Positions 4,688-49,280 of a stretch of DNA of 64,000 nucleotides are shown piece by piece; within the stretch, counting starts at the first letter, position 1, and the number at the start of each line of letters is the position of its first letter. This DNA comes from a virus (lineage: Duplodnaviria > Heunggongvirae > Uroviricota > Caudoviricetes). Position numbers and translations under genes: made by a program. Location: the IMG/VR virus record IMGVR_UViG_3300045988_150638; one strand, given 5' to 3'. Under the pieces are notes generated by a model. The model had not been told where the DNA came from. It was given only the letters and a program-made list of their open reading frames with translations, and ran no database searches.

Positions 4688-4888
4688 TTATCTGCTGCCC
4701 GGCATTCTCTGTTTAAGCGCAACCATTTCCTGACGGCATAACACAGCAATAGCGGTCCTGACTCCAATTTGCTTACCAACCAGGTATTGCTTTACCTTGC
4801 GGCGACTCACGCCATCAAGAAGCATCTTTAACGCTTCACGGGACAATTTGTTGTATTTGCGTGCCATTAATCTACTCCGCAGAACCAT
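4688..4888 (-). CDS. small basic protein, possible DNA-binding (PdcA-like position)
   Basis: 66-aa ORF between doc and the pdcB-like gene, overlaps doc by a few nt; weak. Confidence 0.3.
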
Positions 4889-5252
4889 ACAATCTACGTA
4901 ACGTGTCGGCGACAGAAGATACAGATATCTCGCCAGTCGCAGCGCCTACAGTAAGGTCTGCCAGTTCAGGTGAATCAAATACCTGCACCCCGTTACGGCG
5001 TAGAAATAACAGCGCACTGTTTAGCGCGGTACGCTTATTGGCATCATTGAATATATGCCCTCTCGCTGTAGCCACCAGGTAGGTGGCGGAGACTTCGAAA
5101 AGGTCGGTGATCTCTTCGTAGGCAACTCTGGCCTGAACTCTCCCGATAATAGCCTCTGCCCTACCCGGATCTGACATTCCCGGCAGGCCGCCGTAGCGGT
5201 TTATATTCGCATCATGAAGCGCAATAAGTTCTTCCGGTGATATATGCCTCAT
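4872..5252 (-). CDS. doc: Doc toxin (Fic-fold) of the Phd-Doc module
   Basis: 126 aa; motif [11 protein letters not shown]; translationally coupled to phd (ATGA overlap at 5252). Confidence 0.9.
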
Positions 5253-5473
5253 TATCGGTTAACCAGTTCCTTGTTGGTGGAGTCCAGGGTGTCAAACAGG
5301 GATGCAAATTCAGCATCCAGCGCCGCTTTTTTGTAGGCTTCGAAAGTAGCCTTGCTGACAATTACTGCTGGCTCACGGCCTCTGCGGGTGATTTCAACCT
5401 CTTCCCCGGCTTCAACATTGTTGAGCACTTCAGAAAGGTTGCCGCGCGCGGTACGGAAGTTAATGGATTGCAT
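5252..5473 (-). CDS. phd: Phd antitoxin
   Basis: 73 aa from [19 protein letters not shown]..., matching P1 Phd as I recall it; the listed ORF has 2 extra N-terminal codons. Confidence 0.9.
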
Positions 5474-44599: not shown

Positions 44600-44610
44600 A
44601 AGGATTTTAT

Positions 44611-45120
44611 ATGGGGCACAATAACACTAAGGGAAACCGTAAATTTATTAAGGGCCGCTATACTGCCAACGCGGCCAAAGGCGAACGACTGGTATCTTCT
44701 GAATTCCAGCTCACTTTTGCAGGCCATGAAGATATCAGCGTACTGGTTCGCACGTCGCAAATTCCTGAAATGACCCGCGAGGATGTGGAGGACTATGGTC
44801 CGAATGGTGTGAAGTTCAACCAGCACGGACCAATTCGAAACTCTGGGGAAATCCAGGTCCAGTGCGTGGAGACTATCGAAGGCGATATTCTTCAGTTCAT
44901 CAAGGATCGCATTGCGGCGAAGGACTATGTTGATATCACGATGGCTGCTACCCCTGAATCCAAATCTTCCGGGGTTAACGCTGTGACAAAAGCTGCTACA
45001 ACAATTGAAATGTTGGACTGCAAAATCTACAGTGATGCAATCGACTTTAGTACCGAAGATGTGACTGCCGCTGTGCGCCCGTCACTTCGTATCGTCTACA
45101 ACTGGATTGAGTGGGATTAA
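44611..45120 (+). CDS. putative tail structural/morphogenetic protein
   Basis: 169-aa ORF, last gene before the terminator. Confidence 0.35.
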   Translation: MGHNNTKGNRKFIKGRYTANAAKGERLVSSEFQLTFAGHEDISVLVRTSQIPEMTREDVEDYGPNGVKFNQHGPIRNSGEIQVQCVETIEGDILQFIKDRIAAKDYVDITMAATPESKSSGVNAVTKAATTIEMLDCKIYSDAIDFSTEDVTAAVRPSLRIVYNWIEWD

Positions 45121-45139
45121 GAGTCATCCCTTGTATTTT

Positions 45140-45165
45140 AAAGCTCCTTCGGGAGCTTTTTTATT
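45140..45165. terminator. rho-independent terminator hairpin (aaagctcc-ttcg-ggagcttt + T-run), shared 3' end for the tail operon and the convergent hok transcript
   Basis: Perfect 8-bp stem with tetraloop followed by TTTTTTATTT on the plus strand. Confidence 0.6.
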
Positions 45166-45236
45166 TGGAGAGGAAAGGGTGCATTGAGGATACCTGACAC
45201 ACGAAGAGTGGCGAGGATCTCTCCCCGCCAGGTCTC

Positions 45237-45392
45237 TTACCTTTCAGATTCGTAGGCTGTGAAGACAGTGACCTCCGTCTGGCCGGTTCGGATTCGTACC
45301 TCGCAGAGGTCTTTCCTCGTTACCAGTGCCGTCACAATGACGGTTAAACAGATGACGATCAGAGCGATTAACATCGCTTTTTGCTGCTTCAT
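45237..45392 (-). CDS. hok: Hok/Gef-family type I toxin (51 aa)
   Basis: MKQQKAMLIALIVICLTVIVTALVTRKDLCEVRIRTGQTEVTVFTAYESER; AAGGAG RBS 9 nt upstream; Hok signature TRK-LCE...EV..F.AYE; not in ORF track (<60 aa). Confidence 0.75.
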   Translation of the reverse strand: MKQQKAMLIALIVICLTVIVTALVTRKDLCEVRIRTGQTEVTVFTAYESER

Positions 45393-45450
45393 AGCCTGCT
45401 TCTCCTTGACCTTTTGGTCGGTAAGAGGCTAATCTACGTATGCTAAGCAT
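45244..45450 (-). CDS. mok: mok-like overlapping reading frame
   Basis: 68-codon frame starting 58 nt upstream of hok and overlapping it out of frame, as mok does in hok/sok loci. Confidence 0.4.
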   Translation of the reverse strand: MLSIRRLASYRPKGQGEAGYEAAKSDVNRSDRHLFNRHCDGTGNEERPLRGTNPNRPDGGHCLHSLRI

Positions 45451-45573
45451 AGATATGGCCTCAGATTAATGTTAAGCGTCTTGCAGGACGCGTAATGTTA
45501 TCTGGGGCTTTCTTCTATCTGCTTTTCGGGTAATGCCTGAAGCAGATAGCCTCAAGCACCCGCAACGATTGTA

Positions 45574-45819
45574 TCAATGTCTGGCTTTTTTTCTATAGAA
45601 ATCACCTGGAAGGGTGAATATCCACATCAGAAGAAATGTTGCAGCAAACATGATCCCTAATGGCCAGACCGCGCCAAAGAAAATCCATACTAAGATCTCC
45701 TCTGCTCGTTCTTTGCGGTCGATATCGACAAGCATTTTTCGGCTGATCATGTATACACAGAAGCCAATACAAACATATCCTGCAAAAGCGATCGCTAACT
45801 GTAAAAAATCAGATTGCAT
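45574..45819 (-). CDS. hypothetical membrane protein (2 TM helices) downstream of repL
   Basis: Start taken at internal Met MQSDFLQ; hydrophobic segments LAIAFAGYVCIGFCVYMI and ILVWIFFGAVWPLGIMFAATFLLMWIF. Confidence 0.4.
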   Translation of the reverse strand: MQSDFLQLAIAFAGYVCIGFCVYMISRKMLVDIDRKERAEEILVWIFFGAVWPLGIMFAATFLLMWIFTLPGDFYRKKARH

Positions 45820-45869
45820 CTCCGACCTCAAACTGAAAACGCCAGGTGACTCCAGATTAGAGCAATCTA

Positions 45870-46715
45870 TCACCCTCTGAATCCTGCCGGTATACCCCAT
45901 TGTTCGTTATCTTTATTTTTGGCTAAAACCGCATTAAGAGCTTCGTTTACCGTCATGCAATGCGGCAGATTATCGAAGTTTGATACCCCGCCAATATCAG
46001 GAGAACGCTTGTTCTTCAGGTAAGCATATTTCCGCGCTGCCGCCTCTACTTTCTGCTTGAACTCATGTTTTTGAGCGCGTTTTTTGGATAAACGCAGATT
46101 GTCGGCCTTTGCTTTTGCCCCAGCGATCCATGAAGTCAATTTTTTGAGTTTGGTCGTTCCGGCAGCGCCGGAAACTGATCTTTTTGTTTTTTTAACTTGT
46201 GACTTCTTATTCTTTATTGCCACGTCATCCTGACAGGGGGAGGGGGTATCATTTTGACATGGGGGTGTGGATAAAAAATTAAATAAAGCCAATGTCTTAG
46301 CGAGAACAGCTTTAACCTTGGTTGCCGCTGAAGAGATCTTTAATTTGCTTTCAATCAGCGCATTTTTGGCTTGTTGTGCGAAGGCCAAAAAGGATGGTGT
46401 AAACCGGTACAGGTTAGCGCGACGTTCACGGTGATCGCCGATAACAATCTCTACAGACAGAATTCCTTTGTTTACAGCTTCACGGAATGCACGAACGACG
46501 GTTGATTGGCTATAACCAGTTTCTGCCGCGATCAGGCGGTGAGGCTTGTGAATGAAGTATTCACTGGTTGTTGCCGCTAGATTTGCACATTGCGACAGGA
46601 TATGCCCGGCGCTACGGGATAGACCGGAGTGTGTTACAAAGCAGGCCAATTCATAGCCAGAAAAAGTAAAATCGCTCATCGTTATACAGCTCAGGAAAGT
46701 GACTTTAGCCAGCAT
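45870..46715 (-). CDS. repL: lytic replicon initiator RepL
   Basis: 281 aa, immediately downstream of kilA in the same operon; same length and order as P1 kilA-repL. Confidence 0.7.
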   Translation of the reverse strand: MLAKVTFLSCITMSDFTFSGYELACFVTHSGLSRSAGHILSQCANLAATTSEYFIHKPHRLIAAETGYSQSTVVRAFREAVNKGILSVEIVIGDHRERRANLYRFTPSFLAFAQQAKNALIESKLKISSAATKVKAVLAKTLALFNFLSTPPCQNDTPSPCQDDVAIKNKKSQVKKTKRSVSGAAGTTKLKKLTSWIAGAKAKADNLRLSKKRAQKHEFKQKVEAAARKYAYLKNKRSPDIGGVSNFDNLPHCMTVNEALNAVLAKNKDNEQWGIPAGFRG

Positions 46716-46744
46716 TACAATGCTGGTGGTTCTTACTACGTCTG

Positions 46745-47545
46745 TTAGCGCGTTGCCGCGACAGGTACCAGCACACCAGCATCAAGCAATCGCTTCATCA
46801 GCCACTGCTGACCTTTGCCGGTTATACGAGTCGTGAAAGAAATCCTGCTTCCATTGCTTGTATCGATCACGGTTTCTTTAAGGGTGAAATACCCACGGGA
46901 TATGTATTCTTGTTTGGGGACGTTCCTGCGTTCACCGGTTGCGATCAGAATTCCGTTATCACGCAACCAGGTGAAGAGATAGTTTTGGCCCAGACCGAGC
47001 ACTTTGGCATAGTTGCCGATTAGAACCCCGCTGGCGGTAGCAACGCGTTCGGCGAATTCGACTTTAGGTGCATCCATAAGCATTTTTTGCTCCAGCCGTT
47101 GCTTTTGCTCTGCCAGGTCGGCAGCCAAACGGAGAGCTTCAGGGAGACTCTGCGGAATAGCAGGTTGTAATCTTCCGGCTCGATAGTCGATAAATGTCTG
47201 GTTTACCTTCAGCCGAAACGCGGGAGAAATCCAGCCTGCGTACTCCACAGCGAGCAATTCATGGGCAAAAGTGCCGCCGCCACGGCCTTCGAACGAAACT
47301 ATGCAATTCTGCATAGTTTCTTTTTCAAGCTCTTCGATGAGCTGTTTGGCTGACAGCGTTCTTAGCCATTGAGCTGGCGCTTTATGGGCACCGAGTCCGC
47401 TCGCTCTGTGTAGAGCATTAAGGTTGTAACGGCCAGCGCGGTCGGTCGTAATTTCAACACCACAAATAACAGGCAGAGTGGTTGAAGGATCGACATTTTG
47501 ATGAAGGTTTGATATATTCATATCCGCATTGAATGTTTGTTGCAT
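46745..47545 (-). CDS. kilA: KilA (KilA-N domain plus Ant-like C-terminal domain)
   Basis: 266 aa; C-terminal half is paralogous to the Ant C-terminus (PEALRLAA-LAEQK, GNYAKVLG, YFTLKE); C1-operator-like site upstream. Confidence 0.7.
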   Translation of the reverse strand: MQQTFNADMNISNLHQNVDPSTTLPVICGVEITTDRAGRYNLNALHRASGLGAHKAPAQWLRTLSAKQLIEELEKETMQNCIVSFEGRGGGTFAHELLAVEYAGWISPAFRLKVNQTFIDYRAGRLQPAIPQSLPEALRLAADLAEQKQRLEQKMLMDAPKVEFAERVATASGVLIGNYAKVLGLGQNYLFTWLRDNGILIATGERRNVPKQEYISRGYFTLKETVIDTSNGSRISFTTRITGKGQQWLMKRLLDAGVLVPVAATR

Positions 47546-48970: not shown

Positions 48971-49280
48971 AGTTACGGCCTCACAATCAGGTTTAACAAC
49001 CTGCTACCCGCTGCTAAACAGGTGGCAGGACGTGACGGGGTTAGCAGACTGGCGATTGTGAAACCAGCAGGCCGAAGCCTCCCCATCACGCCCCACCATA
49101 ATTTGGGCGTAACGCGGTTTTACGGACACAAAAATACCGCAATATCGGATATCTGCGGCTGTCCGCACAATCATTCAGGCTGCTAAACCCGGTCGCAGAA
49201 TTTGCTACGACGGCGGAACTATAAGCCTGAACGATTAAAAGGTCAATATGATGCGAAAAGATAGCATTCGTGACTTAAAA
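48971..49280 (-). ncRNA. c4: interval expected to encode the C4-type antisense immunity RNA and its promoter-proximal target sites (not delimited)
   Basis: Non-coding leader between the operator at 49285 and icd, with several hairpins; inferred from P1 immI organisation only. Confidence 0.3.

Follow-up and report, generated by a model that had tools for sequence, protein, structure and literature searches.

In this study, we asked whether a short minus-strand reading frame between bplB and repL of a tailed-phage sequence belongs to a complete type I toxin–antitoxin locus of the hok/sok family, and what such a locus may do for the element that carries it. The sequence is a stretch of viral DNA of 64,000 nucleotides, which is referred to here in its full length as the window. 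A note made from the letters alone (the original prediction) had described a 51-codon frame with the Hok/Gef signature, an overlapping mok-like frame and a Sok-like promoter on the opposite strand, and had taken them for a type I locus that gives the element a second post-segregational killing module besides phd-doc. [quoted passage not shown] Our main reading, to which we assign a probability of roughly 85%, is that it is an intact prophage hok/mok/sok module of the hokD/hokW lineage, situated in the bplB–repL interval and working by the R1 paradigm.

Judged by its sequence, the window is a P1-like phage-plasmid. Positions 44600-46800 are 99.4% identical to a record named 'Punavirus P1', in which the flanking genes are BplB, RepL and KilA, and P1 landmarks are found elsewhere in the window in the form of three tRNA genes and a C4 antisense RNA with a1/b1 targets (27815..29471 and 49018..49224, minus strand). 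The phd-doc genes, which the original prediction had placed in the same element, are indeed present at 5473..4872 on the minus strand.

The hok toxin gene and the mok frame

The hok gene (45237..45392, minus strand) encodes a toxin of 51 amino acids, with an SD sequence GGAG at 45405-45402, an ATG at 45392 and a stop codon at 45239-45237. The predicted frame and peptide were found to be exact, and the profile search that had been proposed as a check places the peptide in the Hok/Gef family: Pfam HOK_GEF (PF01848) covers it over model positions 1-42 of 42 with 78.7 bits and an E value of 2.4e-22, the gathering cutoff being 22 bits. Among phage protein families the match is phrog_251, 'MokW-like host killing' (E 4.9e-32), and all seven conserved Hok residues of the published logo (M1, C16, T18, L30, C31, E32 and E41) are found in the window peptide at an offset of -1. 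The peptide is identical to K-12 HokD at 48 of 51 positions and to HokW at 47 of 51. It is this similarity to K-12 HokD that accounts for the name hokD given by the RefSeq/NCBI pipeline; in the NCBIfam library used here, the Hok family scored 49.5 bits (E 2.8e-13), which is under the strict equivalog/subfamily cutoffs (73), so that no curated model of that library stands behind the name.

A feature near the C terminus of the toxin deserves mention in its own right. The codon of Tyr47 is UAC (45252..45254, minus strand) and is followed by GAA, a codon pair that fits the Tyr-to-Cys editing rule. Editing of A45253 would give the peptide a second cysteine, for which a disulfide with Cys30 would be possible.

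The overlapping frame of 68 codons, which the original prediction had described as placed like mok, was recovered from the list of open reading frames at exactly the predicted coordinates (45244..45450, minus strand). Its ATG at 45450 is preceded, 9 nt upstream, by an SD sequence GAGG at 45462-45459, and lies 58 nt upstream of the hok ATG, so that mok is out of frame with hok. The frame matches phrog_37205 with an E value of 8.3e-21, its ATG is kept in every complete locus that we aligned, and the Mok of the Rac_442 locus consists of the identical 68 amino acids. Two arrangements of this frame were seen among the aligned loci, as mok is out of frame in the window and in Rac_442 (offset -58) and forms an in-frame extension of hok in hokW, Evi and an IncFII R1-type copy. 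In classical R1 the mok offset is -58, out of frame with hok.

The predicted Sok and hok RNAs and the 3′ end of the mRNA

The proposed promoter for a Sok-like antisense RNA is located on the plus strand at 45406..45435, between the start codons of hok and mok. Its hexamers, TTGACC (45406-45411) and TAATCT (45430-45435), are those predicted, and the spacer, for which 17 or 18 nt had been given, is 18 nt. It aligns column for column with the sok promoter regions of hokW/sokW (TTGCCT-17-TAACCT) and of the R1-type locus (TTGCGC-17-TATCCT). A generic promoter scan of the window did not include this promoter in its list, since TAATCT fits the consensus at only 3 of 6 positions, and the poor consensus fit of this -10 box counts against our main reading. 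A single-base indel lies inside the sok -35 box (~45408-45411); as this is between the mok and hok starts, it also sets the frame of mok.

To place the antisense RNA itself, we projected the coordinates of sokW as annotated in VT2-Sakai/Sp5 across a gap-free stretch of the alignment, which yields a predicted Sok of about 71 nt (45442..45512, plus strand). The predicted layout comprises a 5′ tail complementary to the mok start region, then a long hairpin and then GGGGCUUUC. When 45442..45512 was folded, the hairpin gave -36.7 kcal/mol with a z score of -5.74. Compared with the Rfam consensus it carries a 16-nt insertion, which is also present in the hokW locus. The Rfam model RF01794 aligns in its full length (positions 1-157 of 157) to the minus strand at 45387..45561, with 114.9 bits (E 9.4e-27) against a cutoff of 59 bits, and at the Rfam gathering threshold this is the only hok/sok copy in the window. 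Although RF01794 is named 'sok', its match lies on the strand of the hok mRNA and ends on the hok AUG. The model thus describes the leader strand of hok, the complement of Sok, and strand calls derived from it need to be handled with care.

On the minus strand, a promoter for the hok mRNA is predicted at 45568..45595, with a -35 box TAGAAA (45595-45590), a 16-nt spacer and a -10 box TACAAT (45573-45568). It scored 9 of 12 matches in the promoter scan and has an extended -10 TG (45576-45575), which is at the same time part of the TGA stop codon of an upstream ORF of 81 amino acids. The -10 box is separated by 6 nt from the conserved 5′ end GGGUGCUUGAGG that follows it, and where the lambdoid homologues align with this box they read TAGAAT. 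Taking 45561, where the Rfam match starts, as the 5′ end, the core of the hok mRNA from the tac element to the fold-back inhibition (fbi) box measures 385 nt (45177..45561, minus strand), and homology to the lambdoid loci extends over 45177..45573.

The original prediction had also suggested folding of the minus-strand transcript in search of tac and fbi elements, and the expected pairing was found. The tac element, with GGGUGCUUGAGG at its 5′ end (45550..45561, minus strand), and the fbi box CCUCAAUGCACCC (45177..45189, minus strand) pair with each other in the full-length RNA, forming a helix of 12 bp (45561-45550 with 45189-45177) whose pair probabilities lie at 0.90-1.00. The RNA 45561..45140 folds at -165 kcal/mol, with a z score of -8.13, and none of 100 shuffled sequences folded as well. 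Within the aligned set, the tac boxes are identical in 5 of 6 complete loci and their fbi boxes vary only at a bulged base, which is U in the window and C in the lambdoid loci; in the MAFFT alignment the fbi box of R1 is out of register. Near-identical boxes and a misregistered R1 fbi make a covariation count meaningless, and for this reason an R1-type fold was used instead, as a positive control for the tac–fbi pairing. This control showed the same closed layout through GGCGCUU with AAGCGCC (z = -9.24), and as it closes likewise with other bases, the helix is kept while its sequence differs. A chance origin of the 51-codon ORF was considered as well and is ruled out by the Pfam match, the Rfam match and the fold statistics.

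When the 3′ end of the RNA was truncated in silico at 45190 or at 45215, nucleotides 1-13 shifted onto nucleotides 19-34, as in the tac/ucb model of R1, which places a predicted ucb-like local partner of tac at 45528..45543 on the minus strand. In these thermodynamic folds, the mok SD and AUG were not predicted to become more accessible after truncation, and the mok start stayed mostly paired, so that the activation step is not reproduced in silico. The hairpin over the mok AUG of the Rfam consensus is present in the window and has a YUNR-like loop, UUAG.

The 3′ end of the mRNA is less clearly defined. Most of the aligned lambdoid loci of hokD type (Rac, Evi, PPompW and K-12 hokD) have a GC-rich terminator of their own about 8 nt past fbi, whereas the lambdoid alignment and the terminator scan located no dedicated terminator after the fbi box of the window cassette, which abuts the terminator hairpin of bplB. 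This hairpin (45140..45159), which belongs to the P1 backbone, is the sole terminator-like structure downstream of hok, but it scored as a terminator on the plus strand only, as no U-tract follows it on the minus strand. The hok mRNA probably has its true 3′ end past fbi, in the hairpin at 45140-45159 or farther downstream. Because a dedicated terminator is missing and the bplB hairpin lacks a U-tract on the minus strand, both the formation of the hok 3′ end and the timing of its processing are uncertain, which speaks against the main reading.

A substitution in the bplB–repL interval

The locus forms part of a cassette of 693 bp (45163..45855), delimited by alignment with reference P1 (NC_005856) and consisting of the 81-aa ORF and hok/mok/sok. 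Identity to reference P1 stops at 45162, just past the terminator hairpin of bplB, and returns at 45856. In place of the cassette, reference P1 has rlfA (DUF3800), rlfB and pmgF over about 1.8 kb, and pairwise alignment revealed no sequence similarity between the cassette and this insert. The statement in the original prediction that P1 has no hok at this position is thus confirmed; its placing of rlf between hok and repL is not, as the rlf genes are absent and the 81-aa membrane-protein ORF is found there instead. The right breakpoint (45855/45856) lies inside the C1 operator Orlf of P1 (ATTGCTCTAATTATAAC), of which the 11-bp core ATTGCTCTAAT is retained at 45856..45866 on the minus strand while the final six bases are replaced. 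The hok cassette is found directly downstream of the C1-controlled lytic replicon kilA–repL and in the same orientation, and our scan of the region from kilA–repL to hok detected no strong terminator but one weak 5-bp candidate at 45617-45602.

The neighbour of hok in the cassette is a predicted small membrane protein of 81 amino acids (45574..45819, minus strand), in which two hydrophobic stretches can be recognized by eye and which RefSeq labels an 81-aa hypothetical protein. It matches phrog_3772 over its full length (E 6.2e-54) and no family in Pfam, NCBIfam or PADLOC. Within the phage collection it is limited to P1-like phages, and in SJ46, where hok is missing, a homologue of 44% identity occupies the corresponding position. 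Two other readings of this ORF were rejected. It does not represent rlfA, as it has no homology to rlfA or rlfB of P1 and no DUF3800 match and belongs to phrog_3772; and the 108-aa frame that begins at 45900 extends the ORF upstream into repL, both the profile and RefSeq backing the 81-aa start.

The same searches bear on the idea that the locus serves in abortive infection or exclusion, in which a shut-off of host transcription by an incoming phage such as T4 would deplete Sok, Hok would kill the infected cell and the population of lysogens would be protected. Neither Hok nor the 81-aa ORF matched any PADLOC defence model, a recent Hok survey saw no enrichment of hok beside defence systems, and a note of 2026 re-evaluates the claim of defence against T4. 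We therefore consider such a role improbable.

It has become clear that the cassette is neither rare nor new. The original prediction had presented the locus as unlisted; in fact, hundreds of P1-like plasmids carry the identical segment with the annotation hokD, and the 'Punavirus P1' record annotates it as MokW. A 446-bp segment that includes the P1-side junction is present at >=99% identity in at least 377 plasmids of PLSDB and 374 E. coli records of RefSeq, where hok is intact and carries the name 'type I toxin-antitoxin system toxin HokD', and several records in phage databases leave the locus unannotated or call Hok 'MokW'. At least 80% of the segment is found in ~441 plasmids, the rlfA–rlfB–pmgF arrangement of reference P1 in 101 and repL in ~516, these totals being those of separate searches that were not intersected record by record. 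Going by these sequences, the hok arrangement appears to be the commoner of the two by ~4:1 among repL-bearing plasmids, and textbook P1 appears to be the exception. That identity among the plasmids is high is a result of recent spread, and is no proof of selection for function. The substitution that replaces rlfA–rlfB–pmgF was already noted by Venturini et al. (2019), and the presence of a hok/mok/sok cassette in P1-like plasmids is known and ordinary.

The interval is a hotspot of exchange in P1-like elements, with at least four different contents, for which Venturini et al. (2019) is a further source. It is filled by pmgF–rlfB–rlfA in P1 and by three other ORFs, with no hok among them, in SJ46. 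In RCS47 an orfB of the IS605 family is accompanied by remnants of the 81-aa ORF and of the hok leader (its first ~151 nt); these remnants suggest, as far as can be read from the sequence, a secondary loss of hok in this element. Homology to lambdoid loci (hokW of Stx phages, Rac, K-12 hokD and others) is confined to 45177..45573, at 86-91% identity. A close match was also found in an unexpected host, in that the Actinobacillus phage vB_Apl-pPE4 (PP818812.1) has a hok locus that is 89% identical.

These observations can be taken to mean that the module is a selfish or inert passenger, which came from a lambdoid prophage into a recombination hotspot and persists by hitch-hiking or by its own addiction. 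The several contents of the interval speak for this, as does RCS47 with nothing but a hok-leader remnant, and the lambdoid homology takes in the hok/sok unit alone, which runs from the -10 box to fbi (45573-45177), and leaves out the terminator of the lambdoid loci. According to the Hok survey, the chromosomal loci hokA, hokB and hokC moreover failed in tests of post-segregational killing. In one variant, the module may be silent and need TadA editing of Tyr47 for full toxicity, with which the UAC-GAA codon pair would agree. However, all regulatory elements and the ORF are intact in the window, and the arrangement with hok appears about four times as often as that of reference P1 among repL-bearing plasmids. 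We think it unlikely that the module is a mere passenger, and prefer to regard it as an intact hok/mok/sok module.

Proposed mechanism, role and relation to known systems

All sequence elements of the R1 paradigm are present in the window, and it is on this ground that we propose the R1 mechanism for the locus; the elements can be seen in the DNA, while their operation is deduced. According to this proposal, the weak extended -10 promoter would give rise to a stable hok mRNA starting at 45561, which would be kept translationally inert by pairing of the 5′ tac with the 3′ fbi. Slow trimming from the 3′ end would remove fbi, upon which the 5′ end would refold locally and mok would become translatable, with the synthesis of Hok being coupled to the translation of mok. 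While the element is there and being transcribed, the short and unstable Sok (~45442-45512, plus strand) would bind to the mok start region and block or destroy the mRNA. Once Sok is lost, the 51-aa Hok would enter the inner membrane and the cell would die. For a plasmid prophage of low copy number, this would mean that segregants without the plasmid are killed, alongside the action of phd-doc. Faster host killing or lysis after induction, as for hokW-sokW of Sp5, may be an added effect.

Taking the analysis as a whole, hok and sok probably constitute a functional toxin–antitoxin pair. That post-segregational killing alongside phd-doc would be the main role of this pair is a proposal to which we give even odds. 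One point against it is that chromosomal hok loci are reported not to bring about such killing, and the locus belongs to the prophage and chromosomal hokD/W lineage and not to the plasmid lineage of R1. In the Hok survey mentioned above, hok was found to be enriched in prophages. A search of the accessible literature returned no functional test of hok in a P1-like element.

The closest relative that has been tested points to a different, though compatible, role, namely that of a helper in lysis or induction: Sok would be gone after induction, Hok would be made, lysis would occur earlier and more progeny would be released. The hokW–sokW locus, to which the window locus is 86.5% identical in DNA and 47/51 in amino acids, is a proven pair of toxin and RNA antitoxin, with sokW verified experimentally, and RNase III and Hfq are in part required for the neutralization of HokW by sokW (Takada et al., 2021; PMC8621323). 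Upon induction of Sp5, sokW vanishes and HokW then reaches the inner membrane, and when hokW–sokW was deleted, growth arrest occurred ~40 min later and phage release was halved (Takada et al., 2021; PMC8621323). The place of the cassette in the window, behind the retained core of a C1 operator and downstream of the C1-controlled kilA–repL with no strong terminator in between, would suit a role of this kind. However, the effect seen with Sp5 is only two-fold, and P1-type phages are kept as plasmids, the setting in which stabilization by hok/sok was first found. P1 has a holin, antiholin and endolysin system of its own, and reference P1 is fully competent for lysis without any hok. A contribution to lysis is hence possible as a second role and, in our estimate, rather doubtful.

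A bolder version would combine both roles and wire hok/sok to the lysis–lysogeny switch, with the module acting as an addiction system in lysogeny and as an early accelerator of host killing and lysis in lytic growth. Upon induction, read-through from kilA–repL would collide with the convergent sok promoter and Sok would be depleted in this way. We consider this a long shot; if it were true, another, uncharacterized partner would be found in the 81-aa membrane protein inherited along with hok/sok. Post-segregational killing by an R1-type mechanism remains the role that we put forward. The locus belongs to one of the best-studied toxin–antitoxin families and has little value as a discovery. Its wider bearing lies in the persistence of P1-like elements, many of which carry resistance genes, as in the majority of the sequenced P1-like plasmids hok/sok seems to be present as a second module of addiction type in addition to phd-doc.

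Several named systems can be compared with the window locus. With reference P1 (NC_005856) it has both flanks in common: to the left the terminator of bplB, to the right the core of the C1 operator and the 3′ end of repL. With K-12 hokD (relF), which is situated in the cryptic prophage Qin, it shares most of the peptide, as given above, and a 3′ UTR with the fbi box. K-12 hokD, however, directly follows relBE and has no tac, no mok start and no sok, whereas the window locus is complete. We rejected the view that the window locus and K-12 hokD are orthologues that represent the same genomic unit, because the sequences upstream of the hok SD are unrelated and relBE is absent from the window locus.

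The hok/mok/sok (parB) locus of R1 has the same gene layout, the same place of the sok promoter, the same tac–fbi closure and the invariant UACGAA near the 3′ end of hok. The identity of the window Hok to the Hok of R1 is only ~45%, which compares with 44% for HokW (Takada et al., 2021; PMC8621323). In addition, the closing helix is GGGUGC:GCACCC in the window and GGCGC:GCGCC in R1, the Sok hairpin of the window is longer, its cassette has no dedicated terminator, and it is carried by a phage-plasmid rather than by a conjugative IncF plasmid.

The nearest named system is hokW–mokW–sokW of the Stx2 phage Sp5/VT2-Sakai, known in 933W as L0137/L0138/L0144, which belongs to the same lineage, the 86.5% DNA identity applying from the -10 box to fbi. 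The two loci share the tac and fbi boxes, the position of Sok and its long hairpin, and both reside on temperate phages, although the carrier is a plasmid prophage in one case and an integrated lambdoid prophage in the other. They differ at the C terminus of Hok, which reads TVFTAYESER in the window and AVFVDYESEK in HokW, and in the frame of mok, as mokW is an in-frame N-terminal extension (offset -57) and the mok of the window is out of frame (offset -58). This difference in frame is due to a 1-nt indel, by which the sok -35 box likewise becomes TTGACC instead of TTGCCT, and the spacer 18 instead of 17 nt, in the window.
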